Source of the DNA: Planctomycetales bacterium
GTDB taxonomy: Bacteria > 4484-113 > JAFGCY01
Length of the DNA stretch: 32,000 nt
NCBI GenBank assembly: GCA_022646745.1
Contig: CP060262.1
Coordinates: forward strand, 1,140,001 to 1,172,000
Reading direction: 5' to 3'
This document shows, in pieces, positions 6,633 through 32,000 of the stretch. How positions within the stretch are numbered: the stretch's first letter is position 1; each line of letters opens with the position of its first letter. The notes beneath the pieces are model-generated. The model was given only the letters and a program-made list of their open reading frames with translations. It did not search any database and had not been told where the DNA came from. Position numbers and translations under genes: made by a program.

Positions 6633-6682
6633 ATCGGGATTATCCCATCGGATCGCCTGCCGCCAGCTGAAACGGCTGCCCG

Positions 6683-11651: not shown

Positions 11652-12122
11652 ATGACCAGCCGCGGACTCCTCCTCAACGAACTGGAGCACGTGCTTCGCA
11701 ACTGCCGCAACATCATTGAGCTGATCGAACCCGACGACCTCGGGTTCAGGCCGGCGGCGAACATGCGCACGCTTGAGGAACTGGTGAACCACCTCGCACA
11801 GATCCCTGCGATCGACCTCCTGATCATGCGCGGGGCTGAAGAGGCCGAGGTGCAGGACCGTGAGAAGAAGATGTTCGCCCGCAGCCGCGATGACCTGTTC
11901 AAGAACATGGAGCGCGGCAGCCGCGACATGACCCGCTTCATGGAAGGCCTGACCTTCGACGAGTTTGAGAACGGCAACGGCGTGGCCTTCTATGGCCGCA
12001 GCCAGACCTACCAGCAGTGGCTGCTGGAAACGGTCACGCATATCTATCACCACCGCGCGCAGCTGCACATGTACCTGAAGCTCAAGGGCTACCCGGTGGA
12101 CACGAATACGCTGTACAACTAG
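11652..12122 (+). CDS. DinB-family (DinB/YfiT-like four-helix-bundle metalloenzyme fold) protein
   Basis: 156 aa with an AGGAG SD 6 nt upstream. His-containing motifs (LVNHLAQIP; THIYHHRAQLHMYLK) are typical of the DinB superfamily. This is not the DinB polymerase. Confidence 0.75.
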   Translation: MTSRGLLLNELEHVLRNCRNIIELIEPDDLGFRPAANMRTLEELVNHLAQIPAIDLLIMRGAEEAEVQDREKKMFARSRDDLFKNMERGSRDMTRFMEGLTFDEFENGNGVAFYGRSQTYQQWLLETVTHIYHHRAQLHMYLKLKGYPVDTNTLYN

Positions 12123-12127
12123 CGGAG

Positions 12128-12169
12128 GCCTGACGCAAGTCAGGCTGGGAGGTGCGGCGCAAGCTGCAC
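12128..12169 (+). other. Two tandem GCAA-tetraloop hairpins directly after the DinB-family stop
   Basis: The hairpins are gcctgac-gcaa-gtcaggc (12128-12145) and gtgcggc-gcaa-gctgcac (12152-12169, one G-T wobble). They may act as a terminator or stabiliser, but there is no U-tract. Confidence 0.5.
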
Positions 12170-12337
12170 AACAGGGAACAGGGAACAGGGAACTGGGACC
12201 TGGGAACAGAAAGTAGTCAGTGGTCTGTGGTCAGAATCCAGTAGCAGCGGCGCCCCCGCCGCTGAAAGGGAGCTGCGGCTTTAGCCGCACAACAGGGACC
12301 GGGGAACAGAAAGTAGTCAGTGGTCCGTGGTCAGAAT
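12167..12337. repeat. Direct duplication of a 50-nt unit; the first copy is expanded by three extra ACAGGGA heptamers
   Basis: Copy 1 (12167-12237) reads cacaacaggga(acaggga)x.. ctgggaacagaaagtagtcagtggtcTgtggtcagaat. Copy 2 (12288-12337) reads cacaacagggaccggggaacagaaagtagtcagtggtcCgtggtcagaat. Each copy is preceded by a hairpin of different sequence. Confidence 0.8.
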
Positions 12338-12435
12338 GGATCATTTAACGGTGCAGTACATAGCTGACTGATCGCCAGGCATACTGCCTGGCCTCCCCTA
12401 CAATGCTTTCGGGAATGCACTCAAGAGGGAGCACT

Positions 12436-12897
12436 ATGAAAGCAAGAATTTGCATCCTCCTGGTATTGGGAATCTATCTGGCAGTTTGCGGTTGTTCCAG
12501 TAATAAGAAGACGATTCAGTATCCTGCTGACTGGCCAGATTATCTGAAGCTTCCCAAGTCCAGTACCCCTGCCAAAATGACAACATGGAATCACTCCGGC
12601 CTGGAATTCTATTCAGATAAAACTCCCAACTGGTATGAAGCAGGTATAGGTTTTGAATTCAGAGGCTCGCGCGATGAACTTCTGAAACATTTCAGTAGCA
12701 TTTTTGAGAAACATCATGGTGGTGTTACAGTGGATGATTATGACAATGTAGTGAATTATCTAGTCGGTGGGCCACATATCACCTTCAGCATTGTTGCTGC
12801 TACGGATTCTGATGGAAGTAAAATCGCAAATAGATATCAGGTTCTGCTTGACATTCCAGCAGACTCCTTTTCGGAATTTGGCATAATCCTGAATTAG
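12436..12897 (+). CDS. Hypothetical lipoprotein (AT-rich gene)
   Basis: Signal peptide plus lipobox (MKARICILLVLGIYLAVCGCSS). GAGGGAG SD lies 4 nt upstream of this Met; the track start at 12403 is less likely. Local GC is far below the window average. Confidence 0.7.
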   Translation: MKARICILLVLGIYLAVCGCSSNKKTIQYPADWPDYLKLPKSSTPAKMTTWNHSGLEFYSDKTPNWYEAGIGFEFRGSRDELLKHFSSIFEKHHGGVTVDDYDNVVNYLVGGPHITFSIVAATDSDGSKIANRYQVLLDIPADSFSEFGIILN

Positions 12898-13005
12898 TGA
12901 CTCCACTCTGAGGCAATAGCTGAATTTCAAAAATTGAACTTCACCTGCGTCTAATATGAGTCTTGTGCCAGACTTTTCACTATCAGTTGAGTTACGAGGA
13001 TTCAC

Positions 13006-14863: not shown

Positions 14864-14990
14864 GTCAGTCACCTCAGATTAGTTTTTCAGTTCGGGGAAG
14901 TTCCTGCTTCCTTTTCCAAACCGTCTGTAATTCCCGCCCCAGGATGGTTCTAAACAGATATTTCGAAAAAATTCGAAAAATAGCAGAATT
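14864..14990 (-). promoter_or_regulatory. Conserved upstream leader/promoter element, copy 1 (partner at 19463-19590)
   Basis: A 21/21 identical block (14951-14971 = 19557-19577, TTTTTTCGAAATATCTGTTTA on the minus strand). A 33/37 identical block (14899-14935 vs 19505-19541, GGGAATTACA..CGGTTTGG.AAAGG.AGCAGGAACT). The SD context is also identical. Confidence 0.55.
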
Positions 14991-15294: not shown

Positions 15295-15393
15295 ACATCC
15301 TTAAATGCTGATTGCGCGGACGGGCACCCTATCCAATGGGAGATGTCCCATCAACCCGACCCGGATGCGCGAATGCGCAGCCGCAGGGTCAGA

Positions 15394-15417
15394 CCCTCGA
15401 GTGCTCGCACGAGAGGG
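15394..15417. repeat. 24-nt hairpin motif CCCT-CGAGTGCT-C-GCACGAG-AGGG (second copy at 20837-20860)
   Basis: Both copies share the same inner 15 nt. The outer 4 bp covary (CCCT/AGGG vs CCGC/GCGG). Confidence 0.55.
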
Positions 15418-15510: not shown

Positions 15511-15535
15511 ACGACTGACGCTTCGCGTCAGTCGT
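15511..15535 (-). terminator. Hairpin overlapping the lexA stop codon (11-bp perfect stem, 3-nt loop)
   Basis: Sequence reads acgactgacgc-ttc-gcgtcagtcgt. On the minus strand it is followed by GATTGATCTTCC, a weak U-tract. Confidence 0.55.
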
Positions 15536-16148
15536 ACTGCCGGATCAGGCTCTTGAGCTTGCCGAGCACGCGGATCTCGTTGAAGTACATGTCCGGGTAA
15601 AGCGGGTTGGCGGCCTTCAGCACAACTCGACCCGCCTGGCGGAAGAAGAACTTCACTGTGGCCTCGTCCTCCACCATTGCGGCGACGATGTCGCCGGTGC
15701 TGGCGGTCTGCTGCTCACGGAAGATCGCGATGTCCCCTTCCTTGATGCCGGCGTTGATCATGGAGTCGCCCTTCACACGCAGGGCGAACAGGTTGCCGCC
15801 TTCATGCTGCATGTTGTCCATCGGCATGTTGACGTAGTCCTCCACGTTGTGGTCGGCATAGGTCATCACACCGGCGGCGATGCGGCCGAGGATCGGGATC
15901 CGCGCCGCCTCCTCCACGCCAAGCACCTGCTTACCGCGCTGGCCGAGCAGGATGCTGCGGCTGCGGTTGCGCGCCCTTTCAATCAGGCCCTTCTTCTCGA
16001 GTGCCACGACATGGTCATAGGCACCCTTGACGCTGCAGTCGAACTTGCCGGCGATATCACGGATGGAAGGCGCATAGCCGTTGCCTTCGATGAAATCGGC
16101 AATGTACTGCAGCACTTCGCGCTGCTTGTCTGTGACACGTTTGGCCAT
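15528..16148 (-). CDS. lexA: LexA repressor (SOS regulator, S24 self-cleaving peptidase)
   Basis: The N-terminal winged helix is TDKQREVLQYIADFIEGNGYAPSIRDIAGKF. The Ala-Gly cleavage region is GRIAAGV. The Ser and Lys of the catalytic dyad sit in VKGDSMINAGI and VLGKL. Confidence 0.95.
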   Translation of the reverse strand: MAKRVTDKQREVLQYIADFIEGNGYAPSIRDIAGKFDCSVKGAYDHVVALEKKGLIERARNRSRSILLGQRGKQVLGVEEAARIPILGRIAAGVMTYADHNVEDYVNMPMDNMQHEGGNLFALRVKGDSMINAGIKEGDIAIFREQQTASTGDIVAAMVEDEATVKFFFRQAGRVVLKAANPLYPDMYFNEIRVLGKLKSLIRQYD

Positions 16149-16216: not shown

Positions 16217-18646
16217 TCAGGGGGTTACAGAGGGGTCTTCTTCAAGTAGCCGCCTGGCAAGCCGGCTGAGTTCTTCCGTTGAGAGGCCATACTCGCGCAG
16301 CCGCCCATCGTCGTGCAGGGTCCAGAGCCTTGTGCCGGCACTATCCCAGTGAAGGTCCAGCAGGTCGCCTGCCCGCGGGTTCAGCCAGGCGATTGCCTGA
16401 TTCTCAGCAGCACAATCCAGCAGGCCAATCATTCCGGCACCATGGTCAGCCAGCAGCAGGCTGCCCTGCGGGGCAAAACCGAAGCTGACAGGATTGTCAA
16501 AGTGGAAATCACCGTGCTCACGTGTAGTGGAGCGGATCACAGGCAGCCTGTCCCAGCCATCCTCCCAGCGCCAGAGCTCCACTACAGCAGAGGTGCTGCT
16601 TGCGGCAACCGTTGTGGAACCAGCACTGAAGGAAATGTTTCCGTACAAGCGGCCGCCCCGCGCTTCAAGCAGGCCCTTTCTTTCACTGCCACGCCGCTCC
16701 ATCACCATCAGCTTGCCCCTGCTGCTAACCTGGGCAATCAGGCTTGAATCCGGACTGAAGCATACTGACTGTTCATCCTTCCAGCCGTACAGGTCATGCA
16801 CCAGTGCTTCCTCGCTCTGTCCCAGCAGTCTGAAATCCGGCACACTCCATATATATGAGCGACCTGCATATGTGGCGCAAGCCAGGAGCTCCCCGTCCGG
16901 GCTGAATGCCAGGCTGCCTGCACCGCCCTGCCAGATATCAAGGCTGGACAGCAGGCTGGCATCATCGGCCATATCAAACACATCCAGCTGCTCGCCATAG
17001 CCGCATAGTGCCAGCAGGCTGCCATCTCCATTCCAGGCGCAGGCTAGGTACTTTAGCTTTTCGTCATCACCCAGCGAGTGGAGCAGGCTGCCATCAGCAC
17101 AGGAATAGACTTGGGCAATGGCGTTGTTGTCAAGGCAGCAGATGTAGTTGCCATCAGGGCTGAAGGGATTGTCCGGCGGAAGATGGAGTCCAGGTAAGCG
17201 GATGATCGCTCCAGTCCCTGTTTCCAGCAGGCTTACCGTTTTGCGGAACTCCGGAAAGCTCTCCACGGCAATGTAGCGGCCGTCCGGACTGCCGGCCATT
17301 TCATGAATCTCTCCCTGCCCCGTTTCAATGCGGATTGCGGGATCGAAGCAGTCCAGCAGGTGCAGCCCACCGGCGGAGTCAGCAACTGCAAGGTAGCGCG
17401 AATCATCACTCCAGGCCAGATGCTTTGGATCCGCGATGGAGAATGGCAGCTGCACAACCCTTCTGGACCTGACACGGGTGTTGATCATTGCCAGGTTGCC
17501 ATCGCTCGAGCCAAAGGCCAGCCAGTTTCCATCGGGACTGTACTCCATTGCCAGCAGGAAGAAGCTTTCGTAGTCATAATCTCCGCTGCCAAGCAACTTG
17601 CGGTCCTCAAGTGCCCAGATCCGTAACTTGCCATCCCAGCTGAAGGTTGAGAACCTCTCATCCTTCCGGTTCCAGGCAATCCGCATTACCGCCTCGGAAT
17701 GCTTCCGTTCGCTGGCAATCAGCCGGAAGTCCTCCGTCACATCCCAGATCATCACATAGCCATCCGCATCAGCGGAGACGAGAGTTCGACTGTCCGGCGA
17801 CCAGGCCGTGGCGCTCACGATGAAGCTGTGAACTTCAGGCAGCAGGGTTTCACTGAATCCGTCAGTGCTGTCCCAGAGCTGCAGGCGCAGGTCATATCCC
17901 CCGGCGCAGAGCCAGCGGCTGTCCGGACTCCAGCTCACAGCAGACGCACTCTTGCCACTGAGGCTTGCTTCAAGCACCGTGCTGAACTCTTCTGTTTCAA
18001 GGATGTGCATCAGCCCGGAATTACTCACAAGCGCGATGTAGCGACCGTCAGGGCTCCAGAGGGTGCGATGCAGCAGATCGCCGTCAAGCTCTATCCTGTG
18101 GCGGACCGGAAAGCCCGGCTCCACTGAGCGTATGATGGCTGTGCCGTCAAAGCTGCCGCTGGCAAGCAAGCTGCCATCGGGACTGAATGCCACTTCGGTC
18201 AGGTCCCTGTCGTGGCCCACAAGGCGATCAGTCAGCTTGAATCCCTGCTCCCGGGAGTAGATGCGCAGCAGGCCGTCATCACAGGCAGCTGCCAGCAGCT
18301 TGCCATCCGGGCTCCAGTCCAGGCTGGTCACATCATCAGCTTCCTGAAGCAGTGAAGCCGGCTGCAGCTCGCGGTTGAGCGCAGCAAACACCCGCAGTTC
18401 GGCATCCCGCCGGACCGCCTCGTCCATCTCACTGCAAAGCTCCAGTGCCTGCGTTGCCAGCGAGGCCAATTCGCCGCGGTTCAGGGCATCCGGCCTGAAC
18501 TGGTCAAGCTGCAGCAGCAGCTTATCAAGCTGGATGCATTCGCCAGGCTCCGATGGGGTTTCCGCCTGGGCATGCACATTGCCGGTCAGCATCGTTGCCA
18601 GCATGAGAAAACACAGGATTACCGGCAGCCTTGCCGTGCGGCCCAT
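16217..18646 (-). CDS. Secreted multi-WD40-repeat protein (probably two beta-propellers)
   Basis: The signal peptide is MGRTARLPVILCFLMLATMLTGNVHAQA. There are more than 12 repeats of the type GH...V..vaFSPDG.lLASgS.DG (AFSPDGSLLASGSFDG, WSPDGRYIALVSNSG, YSPDGNWLAFGSSDG, FSPDGELLACATYAG, ...). The track start at 18757 would run through the upstream terminator, so I use the Met at 18646. The Met at 18670 is also possible. Confidence 0.85.
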   Translation of the reverse strand: MGRTARLPVILCFLMLATMLTGNVHAQAETPSEPGECIQLDKLLLQLDQFRPDALNRGELASLATQALELCSEMDEAVRRDAELRVFAALNRELQPASLLQEADDVTSLDWSPDGKLLAAACDDGLLRIYSREQGFKLTDRLVGHDRDLTEVAFSPDGSLLASGSFDGTAIIRSVEPGFPVRHRIELDGDLLHRTLWSPDGRYIALVSNSGLMHILETEEFSTVLEASLSGKSASAVSWSPDSRWLCAGGYDLRLQLWDSTDGFSETLLPEVHSFIVSATAWSPDSRTLVSADADGYVMIWDVTEDFRLIASERKHSEAVMRIAWNRKDERFSTFSWDGKLRIWALEDRKLLGSGDYDYESFFLLAMEYSPDGNWLAFGSSDGNLAMINTRVRSRRVVQLPFSIADPKHLAWSDDSRYLAVADSAGGLHLLDCFDPAIRIETGQGEIHEMAGSPDGRYIAVESFPEFRKTVSLLETGTGAIIRLPGLHLPPDNPFSPDGNYICCLDNNAIAQVYSCADGSLLHSLGDDEKLKYLACAWNGDGSLLALCGYGEQLDVFDMADDASLLSSLDIWQGGAGSLAFSPDGELLACATYAGRSYIWSVPDFRLLGQSEEALVHDLYGWKDEQSVCFSPDSSLIAQVSSRGKLMVMERRGSERKGLLEARGGRLYGNISFSAGSTTVAASSTSAVVELWRWEDGWDRLPVIRSTTREHGDFHFDNPVSFGFAPQGSLLLADHGAGMIGLLDCAAENQAIAWLNPRAGDLLDLHWDSAGTRLWTLHDDGRLREYGLSTEELSRLARRLLEEDPSVTP

Positions 18647-18704
18647 ACAGTTTGTCCACCACCCAGTCATCTGTCCCCTGAGCATAGCCGATTGCCGTGC
18701 CCGC

Positions 18705-18746
18705 AGAAAACAAAAAGGGCAGCCCCCATCTTTCAGGGAGCTGCCC
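18705..18746 (-). terminator. Rho-independent terminator after BsuPI-like paralog 2
   Basis: The minus strand reads GGGCAGC-16 nt loop-GCTGCCC followed by TTTTTGTTTTCTG. Confidence 0.8.
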
Positions 18747-18790
18747 GGTTCCTCCAACCTTTCCTGTGGGCTGGCTATTTGGGAGCAGGC

Positions 18791-20882: not shown

Positions 20883-20992
20883 CCCCGGGTATCAGGTGAC
20901 TGCCGGCGCCGTAATCATCCACTTAGCGCTGCTACCTTCCGGTCCTGACGCAGTTCATAGCGATCACCCGCAACAGGCCCGATACCACGGAG
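20883..20992 (-). ncRNA. ffs: Signal recognition particle RNA, small (4.5S-type)
   Basis: The minus strand contains the universally conserved domain IV core GUCAGGACCGGAAGGUAGCAGC (GGAA tetraloop; E. coli has GUCAGGUCCGGAAGGAAGCAGC). The 5' end CUCCGUGGUAUC pairs with the 3' end GAUACCCGGGG. A UUUUUGUUUUUU tail follows. A TAGAAT -10 (20999-21004) sits 7 nt upstream of the predicted 5' end. Confidence 0.85.
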
Positions 20993-23776: not shown

Positions 23777-24244
23777 ATGCCGCAGTACAGCGTCTATACG
23801 GTTGGGCACGGGAGCGAGGACTGGGACAGCTTCGCCCGCCGCCTGTCCGGCCATAACATCGAAGTGCTGATGGACGTGCGTGCCTGGCCCTACGTGGACG
23901 CCAGCTGGTTCAACCGCGACCGCCTCGAACACAACACCCGCAAGAAGGGCTGGGAGTACCTCTGGCTCGGTGCCAAGCTTGGTGCACTGACCGAGGACGG
24001 CCGGCTGGACTACCTCGCCAAGGAGCGGGAGAAGCGCTACCAGGACGGCATCGTCGAGCTGATGAACATGGCCGCCGAGCGCAATGTGTGCATCCTCTCA
24101 AGCCAGCTGGACCCGATGGAAAGCCACCGCCACCACCTCGTGGCCCAGACCCTGATGCGCCATGACATCGGCGTGAAGCACATCCTCGGAGACGGCGAAC
24201 TGCTGCCGGCGCAAGCCGACCTGTTCCACGGCCTGCCGGGCTAG
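23777..24244 (+). CDS. DUF488 family protein
   Basis: The N-terminal signature is VYTVGHGSEDWDSFARRLSGHNIEVLMDVRAWP. The rest (...GWEYLWLGAKLG ... CILSSQLDPMESHRHHL) matches the typical DUF488 pattern. Confidence 0.82.
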   Translation: MPQYSVYTVGHGSEDWDSFARRLSGHNIEVLMDVRAWPYVDASWFNRDRLEHNTRKKGWEYLWLGAKLGALTEDGRLDYLAKEREKRYQDGIVELMNMAAERNVCILSSQLDPMESHRHHLVAQTLMRHDIGVKHILGDGELLPAQADLFHGLPG

Positions 24245-24305: not shown

Positions 24306-25013
24306 TCAATCCACCAGCCCTGGCTGCTGCCCATTACCAGTCGCCTGCCCCAGTACCTCGTCCTTATGCAGCAGTTCCGTCAGCAGGCGCAGCACGGCCA
24401 GCCGGCCATAGATGCCCTGCTGCGGATCATTGATGAAGCCGCCGCCCCGCCCGGCAGCCTCGATTCCGCGGCTTTCCCTCAGGTAGCGATCGATGATGCG
24501 CTGTGTGGCCGGGCCTGAGTTCGATGGCCTGGCAATGCGCTCCAGCATCCCGCTGCCGGCATCGTGCTTCTCATCATGCAGCAGCTGGTAGCACAGTTCA
24601 CGCAGCTTCATGTGGTGCCGCTCCAGCACATATGGGTTGATCACCACCAGCTCAGCCATTGCGGGGCGCTTGAGCAGGGTTGAGTAGAGCAGGTAGGCCA
24701 GCATTGTCATCAGCAGTGTCACGTACAGCGCTTCCGGGCCAACCATGAACCCGCTGGCAACCGCCAGCATGCAGCCGAGCAGCACGACCGGGACTACGTG
24801 AGCCATCCACCACTGCTGGACGCGGTTGAAGCAGTAGCGGGACACCTCATGGTTGGCAGCCAGCGCATGCCGACGCAGTGCTTCAGAATCGATCCCGCCG
24901 ATGCGCAGCACGTCAATGTCGATCCCCTGCATGAAGTGGACATATTCACGCTGCAGCTCAGGACGGTAAGGTCCGTCCTCCATTCTTACGCCAGGCAGAT
25001 GCTGTCCTTGCAA
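24306..25013 (-). CDS. Hypothetical 2-TM membrane protein encoded immediately downstream of the TPR-TIR array
   Basis: 235 aa with a TTG start and a GGGGAGGA SD 7 nt upstream. The central hairpin of two TM helices is WWMAHVVPVVLLGCMLAVASGFMV and ALYVTLLMTMLAYLLYSTLL. The ~120-aa C-terminal soluble part carries a Gly-rich loop (AAGRGGGFINDP). I recognise no domain. Confidence 0.6.
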   Translation of the reverse strand: MQGQHLPGVRMEDGPYRPELQREYVHFMQGIDIDVLRIGGIDSEALRRHALAANHEVSRYCFNRVQQWWMAHVVPVVLLGCMLAVASGFMVGPEALYVTLLMTMLAYLLYSTLLKRPAMAELVVINPYVLERHHMKLRELCYQLLHDEKHDAGSGMLERIARPSNSGPATQRIIDRYLRESRGIEAAGRGGGFINDPQQGIYGRLAVLRLLTELLHKDEVLGQATGNGQQPGLVD

Positions 25014-25102: not shown

Positions 25103-26773
25103 TCACTCCATCCACTTAAGCAGCTTGTCAATGAAGGCCGTGAAGAATTCCGTGGACCAGGACATGGCATTGATTCCCGCAACGGCGCGGATGTCCTCCG
25201 GCAGCTCTTCCTCAGCCGGCCACACAAAGCCTTCCATCATCACCGGGATGATATGGGTGCCGCAGTGCAGGGCAGTGGCGATTTCCTTCCTGACAACATC
25301 CTTCCCGTCCAGGCAGCGGTTGAAGAATCCTGGTGTCATCAGTAGCACCATGTGCCGACTGTAGCGGATCGCATCCTTCAGGCCGTCCTCGAAGCGTCCG
25401 CTTGACAATCCATCCTGGTCCCTGAACACCGTCTTCCGCTTGATGTCCATGTGAGCCTGAAGCAGCATGGAGTTTGAGAGTCCCGGGTCGCGCCGGTAAC
25501 AGATGAAGACATCGTGCTTCTTCTCATTGTCAGGCACGGGCTGGATTGCCTGTGGCTGGCTGGTGATCTGCTCCTCCACCAGCTTTTCCGGCTTTGGCGA
25601 CATCCAGTCCCTGAGGGTCTCCATCAGGAATCCGGGTTGCTGGACCCCGACCTTGCCGCACAGTGAGATCGCCCGGTATATCTCACTGATGGCATCCTCA
25701 CGCCTGCCGGCCTCATACATGGTGATGGCCCGCCTGAAATACCATTCCCATTCGTCGCCAATGCCCTGGCTGGTTGCCATCTCGCTTGCCCTGGCATATG
25801 CAGCCATTGCCTCATCGTATCGGCCCAGCTTGCCGAAATTGACCGCGCGGCCGACCTCAACATCCGGATGCACCGGAATTCCCTGGGCAAGGTACATCCG
25901 TTCGGATTCATCAAGGGCCAGCAGGGCATCCTCGTACCGGCCGAGTTTCTCATACACACTGCCACGGTTCGCAGGCAGCCCGGGAAACACCGGGATGCCC
26001 TGGGCCACGAAGAGCTGCTCGCTCCTGTCATACGCTTCAAGCGCTTCCCCATAGCGTCCCAGTCTCTCAAGCACCCAGCCCTCGTTGACCGGTACCACGG
26101 GACTGTCAGGCAGTTCCTGTTCGGCATTCCTCCGCCTGGAATCGGCAAATGCAAGCAGTGCGTCCTCATAGCGACCCATCGTGACCATCAGCAGTGCGCG
26201 GTTGGCAGCAATCCCCGGATGGACCGGCAGGCCCTGCGCAATGTAGGCCTGCTCTGATTCATTGAAGGCGCGTTGCCCAGCGTCATACCTTCCCGTATGG
26301 ACGTAAACAATGCCGCGGTTGAGGTGTGTCCAGGGATGGACTGGCTGGCCAGCGGAAGCGTAGCGGCGCATTGATTCATCCAGTGCTGCCATCGCATTGT
26401 CAAAATCCACCAGCCTGTAGAAGGCATTGCCCCTTACAGTGGAGATATAGGGACTGGCCGCAATCCCCAGCTCTTCGCATATCCGTTCAGCGTGATCGCA
26501 GGCCTGCAGGGCTTCATCAGCCCGGCCGAGCATCACGATGTCCATTGCCCGCAAGACCAGCAGATCTACATATTTCTTAGGATCCGGATTGCCGGAAAGT
26601 GCCAGGAACTCCTCGCAGGCTGCCAGCGAATCCTGCCAGCGCATCCTGTCCGCCAGCAGTTCAGCACGCCGCATGACCAGCCCGGAATCGGGAGGCTGGC
26701 CGGACTCAGCGAGCTTTTGCTCAGCGGCAAGCAGCTGCTCGAGTTCCTGCTGGGCTGTCAGTGGCTGGTCCAC
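25103..26773 (-). CDS. TPR-TIR protein, paralog A (KLC-like TPR array + C-terminal TIR domain)
   Basis: 556 aa with a GTG start. It has repeated ~40-aa units (NRG....LGRYE(D/E)AL.A.D.SE.....QG(I/L)PV(H/F)PG). The C-terminal 139 aa (about 25106-25522) read KKHDVFICYRRDPG...VFRDQDGLSSGRFEDGLKDAIRYSRHMVLLMT...DVVRKEIATALHCGTHIIPVMMEGF, a TIR (TIR_2-like) pattern. There is no Walker A. Confidence 0.85.
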   Translation of the reverse strand: MDQPLTAQQELEQLLAAEQKLAESGQPPDSGLVMRRAELLADRMRWQDSLAACEEFLALSGNPDPKKYVDLLVLRAMDIVMLGRADEALQACDHAERICEELGIAASPYISTVRGNAFYRLVDFDNAMAALDESMRRYASAGQPVHPWTHLNRGIVYVHTGRYDAGQRAFNESEQAYIAQGLPVHPGIAANRALLMVTMGRYEDALLAFADSRRRNAEQELPDSPVVPVNEGWVLERLGRYGEALEAYDRSEQLFVAQGIPVFPGLPANRGSVYEKLGRYEDALLALDESERMYLAQGIPVHPDVEVGRAVNFGKLGRYDEAMAAYARASEMATSQGIGDEWEWYFRRAITMYEAGRREDAISEIYRAISLCGKVGVQQPGFLMETLRDWMSPKPEKLVEEQITSQPQAIQPVPDNEKKHDVFICYRRDPGLSNSMLLQAHMDIKRKTVFRDQDGLSSGRFEDGLKDAIRYSRHMVLLMTPGFFNRCLDGKDVVRKEIATALHCGTHIIPVMMEGFVWPAEEELPEDIRAVAGINAMSWSTEFFTAFIDKLLKWME

Positions 26774-26881
26774 AGGACTAGTATCTCATGGAGTCAATCA
26801 GTCAACGAGTCACTAAGTCAATTGGAGTGTCGAGCACGTTGCTGCACAGTTGACTCATTGACTAAGTGACTTTGTGACTCT
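26774..26881. repeat. Intergenic element: four AGTCA-containing 8-mers, a 26-nt core, then four inverted TGACT-containing 8-mers
   Basis: The plus strand reads gagtcaat cagtcaac gagtcact aagtcaat (26791-26822), then the core, then gttgactc attgacta agtgactt tgtgactc (26849-26880). It abuts the stop of paralog B and ends 17 nt before the GTG of paralog A. Confidence 0.85.
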
Positions 26882-28555
26882 CTATTCCATCCACTTGAGC
26901 AGCTTGTCAATGAAGGCCGTGAAGAACTCATCGGACCATGACATCGCATTGATGCCAGTCAGGGCCCGGATGTCCTCCGGCAGTTCATCAGGCTTGGGCC
27001 AGGCGAAGCCCTCCATCATCACGGGGATGATATGCGTGCCGCAGTGCAGCGCCGTGGCAATCTCCTGCCTGACAACATCGGCCGGATCCTCACGGCAGCG
27101 CCTGAGGAAGTCCTCCGTCAGCAGGATCACCATGTGGCGGCTGTACAGGATCGCATCCTTCAGCGCATCCTCGAAGCGCCCGCTCAGCAGGCCGTCCTGG
27201 TCGCGGAACACGCGCTTGCCATGCATGTCCATGTGCGCCTGCAGCAGCATCGATGACGTCTTGCCCGGGTTGCGGCGGTAGCAGATGAACACGTCGTGCT
27301 TCTTCTCGCTGTCAGGCACTGCTCTGACAGCGGCGGGCTGGCTGGCAATCTGCTCCGCCACCAGCTTCTCGGGCTTTGGTGACATCCAGTCCTGCAGTGT
27401 CTCCATGATGAATGCCGGCTGCTCCACGCCAAGCTTCGTGCAGGTGGCTATCGCGCGGTACACCTCAGCGAGCGCTTCAGCCTTGTGTCCGGCCTCGAAC
27501 ATGGTGATGGCGCGGTCGAAGTACAGTTGCCAGTCCTCGGCGCGGCCCTGCTCGCGGTTCATGTCCTCCGCGCGCCGGTAGGCCTCGAGCGCCTGTTCAT
27601 ACTGGCCGAGCTTGCCGAAGATGTTGCCACGGGTGTGCACGATGCCTGGCCAGACCGGCAGGCCCTGCTCGCGGAAGCCCCGCTCCGCCTGGGCCAGTGC
27701 CGCCAGCGCTTCCTCATAGCGGCCGAGGCGCTGGTAGGCCATGCCGCGGTTGTTGGCAATGCCGGGAAAGACCGGCAGGCCCATCTCGATGATGCGGGCT
27801 TCGGCCAGGTCATACGCGGAAAAGGCCTCCTTATAGCGTCCCAGCCCCAGCAGCACCGCCCCGCGGTTGAGCATGATGCTGGGGTGCGGCGGCAGGCCCT
27901 GTTCCCGGTAGAGCTGCTCGGACCGGTCGAACGCAGCGAGGGCCTCGAGGTACATCCCGAGCTCCTCATAGGCAACGCCCCGGCTGTTGGCAATCCCCGG
28001 CGGCAGTGGCAGGCCCTGTTCAGCGCAGATCCGCTCGGCATCATCCAGCGCAGCCAGTGCCTCCTCGTAGCGGCCCATCTCGGACAGGGCGTTGCCACGG
28101 TTGATGGCAACCCCGGGCGCCCGCGGGATTCCCTGCTCAGCACAGATGCTGTCCGCCTCGGCCAGGGAGGCGAGGGCCTCCTCGAAGCGGCCCATCATGA
28201 AATACACCTTGCCCCGGGTGCTGCTGACCTCGGCATTGAGCGGTTCGCCCAGTCCGATCGAGAGCTGCTGCGCCCGGTCACAGGCAGCGAGCGCTTCCTC
28301 CTGGCGGCCGAGGATCATCAGCGACTGGGCCCGTGACAGTTCCAGTGCAGGGCTGGCCGGGCGGCCGAGCGTACGGCACAGCGCTTCGGCTTCATCGCAG
28401 GCAGCCAGTGATTCTTCCAGCCGTGAGAGGTCCCGCAGCAGTGCGGAACGCCTGAGCACATTTGCCAGTTCGGCGGGCTGGCCGCCTTCGTTGAGTTGCT
28501 GCTCGGCTGCAAGCAGCTGCTCCAGTTCCTGCTGGGGTGTCAGTGGCTGTCCCAC
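26882..28555 (-). CDS. TPR-TIR protein, paralog B
   Basis: 557 aa with a GTG start. It shares the head (MGQPLTPQQELEQLLAAEQ), has about nine KLC-like TPR units, shares the linker (DWMSPKPEKLVAEQIASQP..PDSEKKHD) and has a TIR C-terminus about 80% identical to A by eye. Confidence 0.85.
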   Translation of the reverse strand: MGQPLTPQQELEQLLAAEQQLNEGGQPAELANVLRRSALLRDLSRLEESLAACDEAEALCRTLGRPASPALELSRAQSLMILGRQEEALAACDRAQQLSIGLGEPLNAEVSSTRGKVYFMMGRFEEALASLAEADSICAEQGIPRAPGVAINRGNALSEMGRYEEALAALDDAERICAEQGLPLPPGIANSRGVAYEELGMYLEALAAFDRSEQLYREQGLPPHPSIMLNRGAVLLGLGRYKEAFSAYDLAEARIIEMGLPVFPGIANNRGMAYQRLGRYEEALAALAQAERGFREQGLPVWPGIVHTRGNIFGKLGQYEQALEAYRRAEDMNREQGRAEDWQLYFDRAITMFEAGHKAEALAEVYRAIATCTKLGVEQPAFIMETLQDWMSPKPEKLVAEQIASQPAAVRAVPDSEKKHDVFICYRRNPGKTSSMLLQAHMDMHGKRVFRDQDGLLSGRFEDALKDAILYSRHMVILLTEDFLRRCREDPADVVRQEIATALHCGTHIIPVMMEGFAWPKPDELPEDIRALTGINAMSWSDEFFTAFIDKLLKWME

Positions 28556-28672
28556 GGGATAAGTATCGCATGCTGCCTGTCAGTCATTCAGTCACTGAGT
28601 CAAGAAGTCGCTGAGGAGTCCTGAGCTCGATGCCCCGATGTTGACTTTTTGACTCCGTGACTTTGTGACTGC
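28556..28672. repeat. Second copy of the inverted 8-mer array element
   Basis: The plus strand reads cagtcatt cagtcact gagtcaag aagtcgct (28581-28612), then a 28-nt core, then ttgacttt ttgactcc gtgacttt gtgactgc (28641-28672). It directly abuts the stop of paralog C. The stop-proximal 14 nt (gtgactttgtgact) are identical to the other copy. Confidence 0.85.
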
Positions 28673-30091
28673 CTACTCCATCCAGCTCAGCAGCTTGTCA
28701 ATGAAGGCCGAGAAGAACTCGTCGGACCAGGACATCGCATTGACGCCCGTCAGGGCCCGGATGTCCTCAGGCAGTTCCGCCGGGCTGGGCCAGCTGAAGC
28801 CTTCCATCATCACCGGGATGATCGGCGTGCCACTGCTGAGCGCAGTTGCCAGTTCCTTCCTGGCAACATCCGCCTCGTCACTAATGCAGCGCTCGAAGAA
28901 GTCCTTGGTCAGCAGGACCAGCACGAAGCGCGAATAGCGGATCGCCTCCACCAGGTCCTCCTCGAAATGTCCCGCCCGCAGGTCATCCTGGTCGCGGAAC
29001 ACGGAGCGGCCCTTCAGGTCAAGGTGCAGTTTAAGCAGCATGGCATGTGGCAGTCCGGGCCTGCGGCGGTAGGAGATGAAAACGTCATGCCGCTTCTGGT
29101 GGTCCGGTACCTGGTCGGCCAGCCTGGACTGCCCGGCGGCCGGACCGGCAGGACCCGCTGCGGGTGCTGACAACCAGTCCTGCAGTTTCTCGCTGTAGAA
29201 GGGCTTGACAACGATTCCCTGTCGGCCGGCTTCTTGGATCGAGCGCATGCCCTCGGCCAGCGCCTGTTCCCGCTGTCCCGCGCGGGCCAGCGCCATCGCC
29301 CGGTGGAACATCAGCACATGTGATGGTTCCTGGCCCCGCTGCGAGCGGAGCTCCGCGGAGCGTTCGAACAGCTCAAGCGCACGGTCGTGGTGTCCCGTCT
29401 CGGACAGGAGGTCTCCGAGGTTCATCAGCATGTTGGCATCCTCTGGCAGTCCGGATGCCTTCAGCAGAGACATGGCCTTTTCATATGCCGCGAGCGCTTC
29501 ATCGAAGCGGAACATGAAACTGAGCACGACACCTCGGTTCATCTCCAGGTCGTGGTCAGGAGGCAGGCCCTGCTCCTCCAGCAGCCGCTGCGTGTTGCCA
29601 AACTCCGCCAGCGCATCCTCCAGTCTGCCCAGCTCCTGGTAGACCGCTCCACGGTTCATTGACAGGAAGGGATAGGCGGGCTGCCCCTGGGAAAGCTGGA
29701 TATCCTCCGCCTCGCTGTAGGCTGCAAGGGATTCCTTCAAGCGGCCCATCCTGCAGAGACAGTTGCCACGGATCTTGGCGAGCTCCCAGTCCTCCACAAG
29801 CCCCTGTTTCCGGATCAGGCTGGCCGCCCTGGCAACCAGGTCAAGCGACTCCTCGAAGCGGCCGATGCGGAACAGCACAGAGGCCGCTCCCTTCGCAGCG
29901 GCAGGATCAGGTGGCTTGCCGGACTGCTCAAGCAGCTCCTGCACAACGGTGTAGCCAGCCAGCGCCTCAGGGTAGCGCGCCAGGGTTTCCAGCAGACTGG
30001 CGCGCTGCAGCGCCACGGCAGGATCAGAAGCATGCCTGTTCTCCTGCTCGATCCACTGCAATTCGGATTCCGCTGTGGGAAGCTGGCCCAT
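28673..30091 (-). CDS. TPR-TIR protein, paralog C (shorter, more divergent TPR part)
   Basis: 472 aa with an ATG start. TPR-like units are present (LGRLEDALAEFGNTQRLLEEQGLPPDHDLEMNRG...). The TIR C-terminus reads KRHDVFISYRRRPG...VFRDQDDLRAGHFEEDLVEAIRYSRFVLVLLT...DVARKELATAL...IIPVMMEGFSWP. Confidence 0.85.
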   Translation of the reverse strand: MGQLPTAESELQWIEQENRHASDPAVALQRASLLETLARYPEALAGYTVVQELLEQSGKPPDPAAAKGAASVLFRIGRFEESLDLVARAASLIRKQGLVEDWELAKIRGNCLCRMGRLKESLAAYSEAEDIQLSQGQPAYPFLSMNRGAVYQELGRLEDALAEFGNTQRLLEEQGLPPDHDLEMNRGVVLSFMFRFDEALAAYEKAMSLLKASGLPEDANMLMNLGDLLSETGHHDRALELFERSAELRSQRGQEPSHVLMFHRAMALARAGQREQALAEGMRSIQEAGRQGIVVKPFYSEKLQDWLSAPAAGPAGPAAGQSRLADQVPDHQKRHDVFISYRRRPGLPHAMLLKLHLDLKGRSVFRDQDDLRAGHFEEDLVEAIRYSRFVLVLLTKDFFERCISDEADVARKELATALSSGTPIIPVMMEGFSWPSPAELPEDIRALTGVNAMSWSDEFFSAFIDKLLSWME

Positions 30092-30100
30092 GGAGAGGTT

Positions 30101-30125
30101 CCTGCCGCCGGCATGTGCCGGCAGG
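30101..30125 (-). promoter_or_regulatory. GC-rich hairpin 9 nt upstream of the paralog C start codon
   Basis: cctgccgccggcatgtgccggcagg forms CCTGCCG(ccg)GCA-tg-TGCCGGCAGG with one 3-nt bulge. No U-tract follows. It lies between the small ORF stop (30138) and the ATG at 30091, so it could occlude translation initiation. Confidence 0.45.
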
Positions 30126-30137
30126 CCGGGAGATTGA

Positions 30138-30470
30138 CTAACTCTTCCTGGTGAAGTTTCCGGCCGTCAGGTCCCGGTCCGCATCCGCACTGGTCAGCGG
30201 CACATCAATCTTGGACGGGGTGAAGTCGCCGGGCAGGTTCGCGCAGACGGAACAGGTGTACTGGTCACCGCTACCGCTTGGGACCTGGATTCCACTGACG
30301 CAGAACTGTCCGTTGGCATCAGTTGTGCAGCTGTTTTGCTGGTTGTTGCTGGTTGACACACTGACCTTGATTCCGGCAAGTGGCTTGCCGTCAGGATCAA
30401 GCACGGCACCCTTGAGGTTGCACTGCCCGCCCATGGTGCCTGAGTTGTTCGCTCCACTGCTATCCGTCAT
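30138..30470 (-). CDS. Small Cys-containing protein with carboxypeptidase-regulatory-like (transthyretin/Cna-B-like beta-sandwich) motif; no signal peptide
   Basis: 110 aa with a GAGG SD 6 nt upstream. The pattern LKGAVLDPDGKPLAGIKVSVS.......CTTDANGQFCV matches G.V.D..G.P..G..V......T.TD.NG.F of CarboxypepD_reg-like domains. It has 5 Cys. It is embedded between TIR paralogs C and D. Confidence 0.55.
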   Translation of the reverse strand: MTDSSGANNSGTMGGQCNLKGAVLDPDGKPLAGIKVSVSTSNNQQNSCTTDANGQFCVSGIQVPSGSGDQYTCSVCANLPGDFTPSKIDVPLTSADADRDLTAGNFTRKS

Positions 30471-30519
30471 AACCGCCTCACTGCATCTGCATAAGCTCCA
30501 GCTACTATAGACGACTGGT

Positions 30520-30562
30520 ATAAAAAATTAGAACAGGCAAATAAAAACATTTTAATTGCCTG
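30520..30562 (-). terminator. Candidate rho-independent terminator after paralog D, in an AT-rich spacer
   Basis: The minus strand reads CAGGCAA-14 nt loop-TTGCCTG followed by TTCTAATTTTTTA. Confidence 0.5.
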
Positions 30563-30689
30563 ATTTTCCGATTGCTCAGCTGTGTCAGTAGTGGCCGTCA
30601 CCTAGCATGTATGCCAGCTGGGAAATGTTCAAACACCCATCCGCACACTATTCGAGGGCTCTAGCTCTGGCAACACGGGGCTGATCTGC

Positions 30690-32000
30690 TCACTCGCCCA
30701 TCCAGCTCAGCAACTTGTCAATGAAGGCCGTATAGAACTCCGCGGAGTGGCTCATGGCGTTGATGCCGGTGATCGCGCGGATGTCCTCCGGCAGCTCCTC
30801 CGGCTTCGGCCAGGCAAATCCCTCCATCATCACCGGGATGATGTGCGTACCGCAGTGCAGGGCGGTGGCAATCTCCTTCCTGACAACGTCATCCTCATCC
30901 GAACAGCAGCGGCTGAGGAATTCCGGTGTCATGAGGATCACCATGTGCCGGCTGTAGCGGATCGCCTCGCGCAGGCCGTCCTCGAAGCGACCACTTGACA
31001 AGCCGTCCTGGTCGCGGAACACCTGCTTCCGCCTGAGCTCCATGTGGGCCTGCAAGAGCATGGAGTGGGTCTGCCCCGGATCGCGCCGGTAGCAGATGAA
31101 GACGTCGTGCTTCTTCTCGTTGTCAGGCACGGGCTGCACCGCGAGCGGCTGGCTGGCAATCTGCTCCTCAAGCAGCTTCTCCGGCTTTGGCGACATCCAG
31201 TCCTTGAGCGTCTCCTTCACGAATGCCGGCTGTACAATGCCGAGTTTGCCGCAGATCATGATGGAACGGTATGCCTCGTCAATGGCCTCCTCGCGATGGC
31301 CTGCCTCATACATCGTGATGGCACGCTGGAAGTACAGGTTCCACTGCTCGGCCATTCCCTGTTCACTGAACTGCTCCTCGGCCAGGGCATAGGCATCCAG
31401 AGCGTCCTCATAGCGCCCGAGCTTGCCATAGACAGCCGCCCTGCTGGACTGGATGCCCGGGTACGCTGGCAGGCCCTGTTCCCGGTAGAGCTGCTCCGAT
31501 TCATCGAAGGCGGCCAGCGCTTCCTCATAGCGCCCGAGCAGGGACAGGGTCTCCCCACGGCAGTTGGCAATGCCGGGAAAGACAGGCAGGCCTTGTTCCC
31601 TGAACATCCGCTCGCAACGGGCATAGGACTCGAGCGCTTCATCGTGCCGCCCGATCAGGTCCTGGGCATTGCCGCGGTTGAGGTATATGCCCGGGAAGAC
31701 CGGCAGGCCCTGTTCCATGTACATGCGTTCCGCTTCCGCGAAACTCGAAAGGGCCTCCTCATTGCGGCCGCTGTGATGATGCACAACCCCCATGTTGCAG
31801 GTGATGACCGGCGATGCCGGCAGGCCCTGGCTGGCCAGGCGCTGCTGGGCCTCACCGAATGAGGCAAGCGCATCCGCATAGCGGCCCAGGTTCTGGAAGC
31901 AGTTGCCACGCGTGTTGGCGATACCCGGCAGCAGTGCGCTGCCCTGTTCCCGGCAGAGGGCGTCAGCCCTGTCACAGCATTCAAGGGCATCATCAAACCT
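30690..32000 (-). CDS. TPR-TIR protein, paralog D (5' end beyond the window)
   Basis: The track lists 30690-31793 from an internal Met. Manual translation upstream in the same frame has no stop through 32000 and continues the TPR pattern (...RFDDALECCDRADALCREQGSALLPGIANTRGNCFQNLGRYADALASFGEAQQRLASQGLPASPVITCNMGVVHH...). The TIR C-terminus is about 85% identical to A by eye. Confidence 0.85.
   Translation of the reverse strand, partial: RFDDALECCDRADALCREQGSALLPGIANTRGNCFQNLGRYADALASFGEAQQRLASQGLPASPVITCNMGVVHHHSGRNEEALSSFAEAERMYMEQGLPVFPGIYLNRGNAQDLIGRHDEALESYARCERMFREQGLPVFPGIANCRGETLSLLGRYEEALAAFDESEQLYREQGLPAYPGIQSSRAAVYGKLGRYEDALDAYALAEEQFSEQGMAEQWNLYFQRAITMYEAGHREEAIDEAYRSIMICGKLGIVQPAFVKETLKDWMSPKPEKLLEEQIASQPLAVQPVPDNEKKHDVFICYRRDPGQTHSMLLQAHMELRRKQVFRDQDGLSSGRFEDGLREAIRYSRHMVILMTPEFLSRCCSDEDDVVRKEIATALHCGTHIIPVMMEGFAWPKPEELPEDIRAITGINAMSHSAEFYTAFIDKLLSWMGE

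Follow-up and report, generated by a model that had tools for sequence, protein, structure and literature searches.

Four tandem TPR-TIR genes with SARM1-type TIR domains in an uncultured wastewater bacterium: candidate stand-alone receptors without an NTPase

Introduction

What could a bacterium do with four neighbouring genes that each join a TPR array to a TIR domain and encode no NTPase module? The question is raised by a window of 32,000 nucleotides (the whole stretch of DNA that was analysed) from an uncultured wastewater bacterium, for which a sequence-only reading had proposed an undescribed TIR-based conflict or immunity locus. We followed up this proposal by computational analysis of the genes, their domains, their relatives and their surroundings.

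Results

Gene models of the array

Open reading frame calls and Pfam searches bore out the four minus-strand TPR-TIR genes A, B, C and D at the positions read before (Table 1). They have a common layout, in which a conserved N-terminal head helix is followed by 7-9 TPR-like repeats, a linker and a C-terminal TIR domain. All motifs given for head, linker and TIR in the sequence-only reading were found; the linker is divergent in C. The nearest relatives of C are P0008 and UBP7 L013_469. In the NCBI annotation paralog A is named 'tetratricopeptide repeat protein' (UNM09338.1).

Table 1. Features of the TPR-TIR array and its neighbours (window positions)
Feature	Position	Strand	Description and basis
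DUF488 gene	23777..24244	+	Convergent with array; Pfam DUF488 2e-13; PADLOC candidate PDC-M45B 3e-30
Orphan 2-TM protein	24306..25013	-	Downstream of A; called as 208-235 aa; ATG start 24983
Paralog A	25103..26773	-	556 aa; head helix, ~9 TPR-like repeats of 39 aa (9 inferred), linker, SARM1-type TIR; ORF, Pfam TPR families and TIR_2, alignment
A, TIR core	25106-25528	-	
A, catalytic-Glu codon	25283-25285	-	GAA; codon verified
A, extended -10-like element	26771..26788	-	TGAGATACT; 6 nt before GTG start of A
Paralog B	26882..28555	-	557 aa; residues: head helix 7-23, nine helix-pair repeats 30-374 (anchors 43+39k), two linker helices 381-404, TIR 420-556; ORF, Pfam, AF2 model
B, TIR core	26885-27310	-	
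B, Glu codon	27062-27064	-	Codon verified
B, extended -10-like element	28553..28570	-	TGCGATACT; 6 nt before GTG start of B
Paralog C	28673..30091	-	472 aa; divergent subtype, 7 repeats, different linker; ORF, Pfam
C, TIR core	28676-29101	-	
C, Glu codon	28853-28855	-	Codon verified
Cys-rich beta-sandwich ORF	30138..30470	-	110 aa; CarboxypepD_reg-like, Pfam E 2e-9; between D and C
Paralog D	30690..32000	-	Cut by window edge, frame open to base 32000; 8 repeats (inferred from length)
D, TIR core	30693-31118	-	
D, Glu codon	30873-30875	-	Codon verified

Paralog D was completed from the overlapping metagenome contigs L001 and L005, both of which match the window at 100% identity. The full protein has 519 aa, about 249 nt of its gene lie past base 32000, and its head is the same as in the other paralogs (VDRPLTAQQELEQLLAAEQ). 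Since the gene of a PlsC-type acyltransferase ends about 22 nt directly upstream of D, the array does not continue beyond the window as had been thought possible; it comprises exactly four genes and stops at D.

A motif scan of all four proteins gave no Walker A or P-loop motif, and Pfam returned zero matches to NTPase families in A-D. As the sequence-only reading had stated, the window contains neither an Argonaute nor a cyclase, and no SIR2, SLOG or Macro domain. No other ThsA-type domain that is known and no NTPase occurs anywhere in it either. PADLOC and NCBIfam recognised no more than a generic TIR. A CBASS, Pycsar or SPARTA TIR effector was also considered as an identity and rejected, as the window contains no cyclase or Argonaute as partner and A-D carry no SAVED, STING or APAZ sensor domain; SAVED-TIR models matched A-D weakly and in the TIR part only (best 5.6e-9, 34 bits).

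The -10-like element in front of the GTG codon of A suggests that this gene may have its own promoter and a leaderless mRNA. Before B and D the same element recurs at equal spacing, as it does before most of the relatives found in four other genomes, and paralog C carries an SD-like leader in its place. It appears that every paralog has a promoter of its own, with promoter-like elements at A, B and D.

The TIR domain is of SARM1 type

All four proteins were at or over the gathering cut-off of Pfam TIR_2 (PF13676; 28 bits), the profile named for this check beforehand, with 28.2 bits for A, which passes only narrowly, 38.2 for B, 43.8 for C and 37.9 for D. An identity of about 80% had been estimated by eye for the TIR domains; this holds among A, B and D (79-82%) but not for C (65-67%).

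When the family TIR profile was searched against the PDB by hmmsearch, human SARM1 was matched over the whole domain with an E value of 1.5e-37 and C. elegans TIR-1 with 8.5e-26, while the best structure other than these was a plant TIR at 2.8e-4. The TIR of B can be aligned end to end with that of human SARM1 at 41% identity and 67% similarity. In Foldseek, the top 36 matches of the TIR model were all SARM1 or TIR-1 (TM 0.53-0.67), the AF2 model being only moderately confident in this region (pLDDT 55-78). The TIR of A-D is thus SARM1-type. SAM and Arm domains gave zero Pfam matches in A-D; a SAM domain is carried by 22 of the 67 next-closest TIR proteins.

The functional residues of SARM1 for the alignment check were taken from the literature (PMC8266388). 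In this alignment the Glu of VVRKEI, suggested earlier as a candidate for the catalytic one, stands opposite E642, the catalytic Glu of SARM1. It is invariant in 10/10 family members tested, as are Y568, R569, D594, G601, F603 and C629; K628(R) and E686 are likewise conserved in all of them. Of the pocket or multimerisation residues, W638 is replaced by Val in 10/10 members and H685 by T, D, A or S, whereas the other closest SARM1-type TIRs have Trp in 128/147 and His in 109/147. As mutation of SARM1 at W638 or H685 lowers kcat about 100-400-fold (PMC8266388), catalysis in the family may be weak, altered or absent. The TIR dN/dS of 0.14-0.18 (A, B, D) indicates purifying selection, and the dS of 0.5-1.05 among these three argues against recent gene conversion.

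Variation of the TPR repeats

Pfam TPR_1, TPR_2 and TPR_12 match A-D far over their cut-offs (E 1e-13 to 1e-30), and the AF2 model of B contains nine helix pairs at a pLDDT of about 90 (mean of the model 81.9). The TPR repeats read before are hence real, although the six to nine units of about 40 residues need correction to 7-9 units with a period of exactly 39 residues (34 in the canonical TPR).

The TPR bodies of the paralogs share 26-50% identity and have, as noticed by eye, diverged much more than the TIRs. Entropy is highest at repeat positions 4, 5, 9, 12 and 13 (2.9-3.05 bits) and amounts to 0.56-1.12 bits at the scaffold positions 7, 8, 15, 20, 21 and 35. The canonical ligand-contact positions of TPRs are 2, 5, 9, 12 and 13 (PMC1261162), and four of these five (5, 9, 12, 13) are among the hypervariable ones. 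Judged from the repeat alignment, the variation is centred on the largely canonical concave ligand face and is not spread over the exposed convex face.

Between the window and the related MAG Ww346, TPR bodies reach at most 53-56% identity, against 79-85% for flanking orthologs and 77-91% for the TIRs. The TPR bodies therefore evolve far faster than the TIRs and the flanking genes. As dN/dS over the whole TPR region stays below 1 (0.28-0.67), with dS saturated, these values speak for faster evolution only and do not demonstrate positive selection. Both the concave-face variation and the fast TPR evolution lend real support to the TPR-sensor library proposed earlier.

Distribution and turnover of the family

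The source genome (4.1 Mb) holds at least five copies, four in tandem and at least one elsewhere; at least nine were found in Ww346 and three in the UBP7 MAG. Repeat number ranges from 7 to about 10 in the family, and Ww346 carries a decayed TIR remnant. Only a few uncultured lineages carry the family, which has expanded within them, and no phage homologs of it were found. The varying copy and repeat numbers, together with the decayed copy, indicate turnover by birth and death, as is typical of conflict receptors.

Singleton copies, in the source genome as well as in other lineages, stand alone among unrelated genes; hence no partner is required. This bears on the possibility that the four paralogs act only jointly, as one multi-subunit machine assembled as a hetero-oligomer through their common head, linker and TIR. 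Such an assembly would fit the finding that A, B and D differ in their TPR bodies while their head helix, linker and TIR are conserved, and also the tandem arrangement retained in Ww346. We nevertheless regard it as highly improbable in view of the singletons, the copy number that varies between genomes, the promoter-like element at each of A, B and D, and the absence of the shared linker from C.

Neighbouring genes and genomic context

Both small proteins pointed out beside the array exist, namely the beta-sandwich ORF embedded in it, which is probably co-transcribed with C, and the downstream 2-TM protein, in which two hydrophobic helices were seen. Homologs of the former were found in no related locus, the syntenic Ww346 array included. 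The 2-TM protein gave zero matches in Pfam, PADLOC and NCBIfam, its gene is missing from the syntenic Ww346 array, and only one other relative cluster turned up among 5.8 billion proteins. The suggestion that the two act together with the TPR-TIR proteins is not sustained by the Ww346 array, which lacks both, and by comparison of the loci they are no conserved partners of the array. Nor was an effector-type gene conserved beside the array or any related locus examined.

These results also bear on a Thoeris-like function, of which multiple adjacent TIR genes had been named a hallmark. The TPR-TIR proteins would then be signal generators, sensing infection and producing an ADPR-derived messenger for an effector elsewhere in the genome or, in this strain, for the adjacent 2-TM protein. 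Several adjacent TIR genes do resemble multi-ThsB loci, the family-specific changes at W638 (to Val) and H685, both in the ligand pocket, could alter product chemistry, and the 2-TM ORF follows A, TM effectors being present in newer Thoeris types (bioRxiv 10.64898/2025.12.03.692087). However, besides the lack of a conserved effector gene and of any known ThsA-type domain in the window, the 2-TM gene is nearly an orphan, and ThsB-type models stayed far under cut-off on A-D (PADLOC ThsB E 5e-3; NCBIfam ThcB4 at most 34 bits against 220). We therefore consider signal generation of this kind distinctly unlikely.

The DUF488 gene has an ortholog in Ww346 that is 85% identical and lies in the same place, and it marks where the array slot ends downstream, a boundary that is conserved. 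This slot, between acyltransferase and DUF488, is stable and kept across genomes. Its surroundings are mostly housekeeping (lexA, SRP RNA, cytochrome c biogenesis, gidA, ack-pta) and syntenic between genera. No defence-island or mobile-element context was found around the array, contrary to the defence-island association that had been envisaged.

Such a setting would also suit a non-immune role, in which the proteins are lineage-specific TPR adaptors with the TIR as an NAD-linked regulator or protein-protein scaffold, e.g. in stress or dormancy control, and TPR divergence reflects sub-functionalisation or relaxed constraint. Besides the stable slot and the housekeeping neighbours, the start of D so close behind the acyltransferase gene, the loss of two residues important for SARM1 activity and the TPR dN/dS below 1 agree with it. 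The invariant catalytic Glu and BB-loop residues under strong purifying selection, the placement of variation on the ligand face and the birth-and-death turnover (copy number, repeat number, decayed copy) argue against it, and we hold it to be rather unlikely.

Discussion

For the biological role of A-D we favour stand-alone TPR-sensor/TIR-NADase immune receptor-effectors, self-contained, cytoplasmic and free of an NTPase, a reading to which we give about an even chance. The TPR superhelix of 7-10 repeats would serve as the sensor, with specificity residing in positions 4, 5, 9, 12 and 13, and would keep the C-terminal TIR inactive. Binding of a foreign protein or peptide, probably phage-derived, might lift this inhibition or cluster the molecules, upon which the TIRs could assemble with one another via the conserved BB loop and so build a composite active site with the conserved Glu at its centre. 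Cleavage of NAD+ would then arrest or kill the infected cell. The paralogs would form a germline repertoire of differing specificities, which changes as genes are duplicated or decay and as repeats are gained or lost. For A-D we infer the immune role itself and NADase activity, and likewise the binding of a ligand, autoinhibition and oligomerisation.

TIR-II, DSR2 and SARM1 (solenoid plus TIR) were counted as precedents for the receptor reading. Counted against it were the housekeeping syntenic context, the generic TIR calls of PADLOC and NCBIfam, the absence of phage homologs from the search, the loss of W638 and H685, the TPR dN/dS below 1 and the moderate AF2 confidence of the TIR.

Animal SARM1 and C. 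elegans TIR-1 are NAD+ hydrolases of ARM-SAM-SAM-TIR architecture. Beyond the catalytic Glu E642, they have in common with A-D the BB-loop residues D594 and G601, as well as Y568, R569, F603 and C629. In both, the TIR lies C-terminal to an alpha-solenoid, which autoinhibits the TIR in SARM1, and the SARM1 TIR branches inside a bacterial clade (PMC13142454). In contrast, A-D have no SAM, their solenoid is TPR instead of ARM, and W638 is Val with H685 unconserved; being multi-copy bacterial genes without ARM and tandem SAM, they are not SARM1 orthologs.

Among bacterial systems, the available part of the TIR-II report (Nat Commun 2024, PMC11350192) describes this E. coli system as a single-protein TIR+TPR antiphage system in which one gene suffices for protection and the active site of the TIR is necessary; about 70% of its members are without an ATPase and about 30% carry an Avs-like one. 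TIR-II, which we compared by this published description, thus resembles A-D in having TIR and TPR on one polypeptide with no obligatory partner. The members with ATPase suggest a TIR-(NTPase)-TPR order, which would be the reverse of A-D, and tandem arrays or a SARM1-type TIR are not reported for TIR-II in that part. DSR2 (defence-associated sirtuin 2) unites an NADase and an alpha-solenoid sensor in one chain without an NTPase and is switched on when a phage structural protein binds to it directly (PMC11850899). It shares with A-D an NADase-type domain joined to a solenoid in this way, but its NADase is an N-terminal SIR2 and the sequences are unrelated. The word 'undescribed' was too strong for the locus, since TIR-II (PMC11350192) and DSR2 (PMC11850899) precede it. 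The general kind (single-chain TIR+TPR and solenoid-NADase sensors) is already described, and A-D most likely belong to it as a variant with a SARM1-type C-terminal TIR.

Thoeris TIR genes may likewise occur as several adjacent copies, and in type VIII, with ThsI/BcTpr as nucleosidase-TPR effector and a separate TIR, TPR and TIR cooperate; in A-D, however, the two are fused and no effector gene is present. STAND, Avs and bacterial NLR-like proteins (TIR-NTPase-TPR/WD40) also combine a repeat sensor with diversifying repeats and a TIR effector, but A-D have no P-loop NTPase (NB-ARC, NACHT, AAA) and their TIR is C-terminal, so that the order is reversed.

A further-reaching possibility, which we think very unlikely, is that A-D are an NTPase-free germline receptor repertoire on a bacterial 'proto-SARM1' plan, in which a solenoid-locked TIR and a hypervariable TPR groove go with an active site that has been remodelled (W638V, loss of H685) to give a new product or activation rule. 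If so, TIRs would be switchable by ligand-driven assembly alone, and the family might mirror the architecture from which animals acquired the solenoid-gated SARM1 TIR.

If the receptor model is true, the family would offer a compact, partner-free system, on a single polypeptide in a bacterial host, for the gating of a TIR NADase by a repeat sensor without an NTPase or a SAM oligomerisation module. The 41% identity makes the TIR near enough to human SARM1 for direct structural comparison, and the loss of W638 and H685, which is specific to the family, amounts to an experiment by nature on the active site of SARM1. With a common TIR and differing groove residues, the paralogs are a ready specificity series for a phage-trigger search. 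The family behaves like a multigene receptor family, unlike a mobile defence-island cassette, and under the receptor model single-chain TIR+TPR immunity would reach into poorly known uncultured phyla.

Four-gene array of TPR-TIR proteins

The four consecutive minus-strand ORFs (A to D) were recovered in the ORF list exactly where the sequence-only reading had placed them, and the frame of D, described there as cut at its N-terminus, is indeed open to base 32000. Metagenome contigs 100% identical to the window complete D at 519 aa; its head peptide, an N-terminal helix, is shared with the other paralogs. Because a PlsC-type acyltransferase gene ends ~22 nt upstream of the completed D, the array consists of exactly four genes, and the suggestion that it might continue past 32000 was not borne out. 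The coordinates of all features are collected in the table below.

Positions of the features discussed (window numbering unless another contig is named)
Feature	Contig	Position	Strand	Remark
TPR-TIR gene A	window	25103-26773	-	
TPR-TIR gene B	window	26882-28555	-	
TPR-TIR gene C	window	28673-30091	-	
TPR-TIR gene D	window	30690 to past 32000	-	
DUF488 gene	window	23777-24244	+	
2-TM ORF	window	24306-25013	-	downstream of A
Beta-sandwich ORF	window	30138-30470	-	between D and C
Bacterial small SRP RNA	window	20887-20984	-	58.9 bits
LexA repressor gene	window	15528-16148	-	
Extended -10-like element TGnNATAMT	window	26771-26788	-	
Extended -10-like element TGnNATAMT	window	28553-28570	-	
Extended -10-like element TGnNATAMT	window	14870-14889	-	
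Extended -10-like element TGnNATAMT	window	6630-6647	-	
45-nt intergenic stretch	window	15351-15395	+	just downstream of lexA
Counterpart of 45-nt stretch	L013 (UBP7 HKST-UBA01)	10660-10703		
WD40 beta-propeller gene	window	16217-18757	-	846 aa
GC dip	window	12001-13000		0.49 vs ~0.61 elsewhere
164-aa ORF	window	12403-12897		no Pfam match
MASE1 membrane-sensor ORF	L006	506-1516		
MASE1-C junction of L006	window	28757		
TIR C-terminus remnant	L007 (Ww346)	8258-8500		81 aa
Neighbour of '4484_113' singleton	L015	4045-5802	-	
Neighbour of '4484_113' singleton	L015	9455-9892	-	

In Pfam, TPR_1, TPR_2 and TPR_12 lay far above threshold in A-D, and a C-terminal TIR_2 domain reached at least the gathering score in all four paralogs. 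No NTPase domain was found by Pfam and no Walker A motif in A-D, in agreement with the claim that an NTPase module is lacking; the head, linker and TIR motifs quoted earlier were likewise all found. The repeat array also stood, but its period of ~40 aa had to be corrected to exactly 39 residues. Repeat anchors in B fall at residues 43+39k, and the AlphaFold model of B contains nine helix pairs, with a mean pLDDT of 81.9 overall and ~90 over the TPR part. C has seven repeats and D eight, the latter inferred from its length. A TIR identity of ~80% holds for A, B and D (79-82%) but not for C (65-67%), while the TPR bodies have, as proposed, diverged more (26-50% identical). Full-length Foldseek searches returned only generic TPR superhelices and SARM1 at low TM, with nothing on interdomain geometry. 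No intrinsic terminators were predicted between the array genes.

A SARM1-type TIR with a remodelled pocket

Searched against solved structures, a profile built from the TIR cores of A-D matched the human SARM1 TIR over its full length (E 1.5e-37), followed by C. elegans TIR-1 (8.5e-26); the best of the remaining solved TIRs, a plant one, had only 2.8e-4. An alignment of B with the human SARM1 TIR covers 138 residues with two small gaps, at 41% identity and 67% similarity. Foldseek with a TIR-only model (pLDDT 72) ranked SARM1 or TIR-1 in the top 36 places and plant TIRs thereafter; bacterial TIR structures were absent from its top 50 matches. The nesting of the SARM1 TIR inside a bacterial clade is already established (PMC13142454), and bacterial SARM1 homologs were not found in an earlier survey (PMC7075850).

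Residues were then compared at the SARM1 positions functionally tested in PMC8266388. Y568, R569, D594, G601, F603, K628 (as Arg), C629, E642 and E686 are kept in 10/10 family members, and so the catalytic Glu guessed at in the sequence-only reading, equivalent to E642, is present in every one. The position of W638 is Val in all family members and Trp in 128/147 other close TIRs, and that of H685 is T, D, A or S in the family and His in 109 of the same 147. This residue-level comparison thus supports the catalytic Glu and predicts a TIR pocket that is remodelled relative to SARM1, with W638 and H685 lost.

Distribution of the family

A first TIR-only word-index search gave 4 matches, which marks its sensitivity limit, and an exhaustive search of 1.84 billion cluster representatives was needed. 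It yielded 25,403 relatives (4,912 at E <= 1e-10), of which the close family makes up only about six clusters, all TPR-TIR proteins of 477-519 aa, before the score falls steeply. Of the next 67 matches, 22 have SAM domains, and these 22 therefore look like animal SARM1 orthologs; few of the 67 carry repeat domains, and TPR is absent from their listed families. With full-length B as word-index query, only 11 clusters scored above E 1e-100, all TPR+TIR_2, and scores then dropped steeply to TPR-only proteins. In a representative library, the 453-aa proteins P0071 and P0108 form a more distant branch of the TPR-TIR architecture, with 5-6 copies of the same 39-residue repeat and a C-terminal SARM1-type TIR in which W638 and H685 are kept and G601 is replaced by Arg.

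Of 185,579 species-representative genomes, only three, all MAGs, contained relatives. 'Planctomycetales bacterium Ww346' has at least nine copies on five contigs, several in tandem, 'UBP7 HKST-UBA01' has three, and a Segetibacter MAG gave one weak match. A MAG labelled '4484_113' holds one singleton copy; two of its neighbours on contig L015 share the N-terminal motif PIVIGV-x-x-HRH, and neither has a Pfam match. The window's own 4.11-Mb genome contains a fifth copy (P0009, UNM09458.1), a singleton near gidA ~120 genes from A (UNM09338.1). That the array paralogs work only as an obligate hetero-oligomer seems to us very improbable. A search for phage-encoded homologs of the TPR-TIR family found none.

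Gene turnover and variation of the TPR groove

Ww346 has a comparable array in the same chromosomal slot, with the acyltransferase gene on one side and the DUF488 gene on the other (aa identities of 79% and 85%). Directly after its acyltransferase gene lies a TIR C-terminus remnant fused to a head-peptide fragment; this decayed paralog testifies to gene death in the array. TIR identity between the window genome and Ww346 is 77-91%, and the TPR bodies reach only 49-56% in their best pairings, much less than the flanking genes. Repeat number varies from 7 to ~10 across the family. Recent gene conversion as the source of TIR conservation is excluded by a TIR dS of 0.5-1.05. TIR dN/dS is 0.14-0.18 for A, B and D; that of the TPR part is 0.28-0.67, with dS saturated.

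Per-position entropy was taken over repeats 2-8 of 22 family members. Helix A positions 4, 5, 9, 12 and 13 are the most variable (2.9-3.05 bits), scaffold positions 7, 8, 15, 20, 21 and 35 are constrained (0.56-1.12 bits), and the outer helix B lies between the two. The canonical TPR positions that are concave, contact the ligand and vary most are, according to Magliery and Regan, 2, 5, 9, 12, 13, 33 and 34 (PMC1261162). Compared with these canonical positions, the divergence within this narrow family sits in the predicted binding groove. The available strains, compared for TPR microdiversity, were 99.8-100% identical and gave no informative differences.

The metagenome scaffold L006 has a MASE1 membrane-sensor ORF joined in frame to the final 27 codons of C, with B and A after it. 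Either the assembly is chimeric at the repeated TIR end, or C and D have been replaced in this strain.

Promoter-like elements

An extended -10-like element, TGn followed by (G/C/A)ATA(C/A)T, stands 6-7 nt before the start codon, in most cases GTG, of A, B and D and, in four other genomes, of most relatives. This suggests that these genes each have their own promoter and a leaderless mRNA. C-type genes have an SD-like leader in its place. The four elements of the table stand 5-8 nt upstream of GTG starts, that of a BsuPI-family gene among them, suggesting frequent use of leaderless, GUG-initiated mRNAs in this organism. Since the element also occurs at another gene start in the window, it is a habit of the genome rather than special to the TPR-TIR family.

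Genomic context and candidate partners

The window is core chromosome, with genes for ResB/CcsA, RNase HII, an ABC/GldG-like transporter, DinB, LexA and cytochrome c; the LexA gene and the SRP RNA confirm this context. PADLOC gave weak TIR-region matches for A-D and generic domain matches elsewhere, and nothing exceeded the NCBIfam cut-off. The neighbours of copies at six other loci are mostly housekeeping genes. The expected defence-island association was therefore rejected: among 36 neighbour ORFs of the six related loci and 21 further ORFs of the window, PADLOC and Pfam recognised housekeeping genes and generic domains, with only one unvalidated PDC-S11 cluster near one of the six loci. No association with a tRNA or integration site was found.

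Neither proposed partner held up. The 2-TM protein, for which 5.8 billion proteins contain just one other relative, is absent from the syntenic Ww346 array, and the beta-sandwich ORF is without a homolog at any related locus, the Ww346 array included. The DUF488 protein, kept beside the array in Ww346, matches the PADLOC candidate-system model PDC-M45B (3e-30); as a partner at other loci it was rejected, the 155-aa neighbour in L016 being unrelated.

Elsewhere in the window, the 45-nt stretch near lexA shares 98% identity with its counterpart in UBP7 HKST-UBA01, which lies ~230 nt past a TPR-TIR gene; for coding DNA the identity of the two genomes is only ~66-77%. Stable hairpins are predicted from its sequence (z -3.76), no Rfam family reaches the gathering threshold, and a conserved small RNA or a structured element is a candidate reading. 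One window protein, which may be the WD40 protein, matches the PADLOC model HEAT-ARM_XIII (4e-22).

Proposed mechanism and relation to known systems

The best reading of each TPR-TIR gene, to which we give an even chance, is a single-chain receptor-effector. The TPR groove would bind a foreign protein or peptide, and binding would release or cluster the TIR. The conserved BB loop could then drive TIR-TIR assembly, by which the active site would be completed around the Glu, and the assembled TIR would consume NAD+. By analogy, every step has a precedent in SARM1, DSR2 or E. coli TIR-II. SARM1 is held by a solenoid lock, and its catalysis depends on assembly. DSR2 joins a solenoid sensor to an NADase without an NTPase and is activated by a tail tube protein of phages (PMC11850899). 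In E. coli TIR-II, phage protection comes from one TIR+TPR protein and depends on the TIR active site, and ~70% of members are without an ATPase (PMC11350192). The main doubts about the receptor-effector reading are the housekeeping context and the missing W638 and H685. As a rival, regulation or scaffolding outside immunity is unlikely, though it deserves some weight.

SARM1 orthologs have SAM and ARM domains, whereas A-D have neither and thus are not SARM1 orthologs. The defining features of Thoeris, STAND/Avs, CBASS, Pycsar and SPARTA were tested and not found, so A-D belong to none of these systems. That the genes encode Thoeris-like signal generators whose effector is unlinked is a rather improbable reading. 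In architecture the locus resembles TIR-II.

The locus, then, fits a kind already described, a repeat sensor fused to an NADase with no NTPase. What is new is its C-terminal SARM1-type TIR with a pocket remodelled at the residue level, its regular 39-residue TPR with variation focused on the predicted groove, and, in little-known uncultured lineages, its multigene arrays with birth-and-death turnover at a conserved place in the chromosome.
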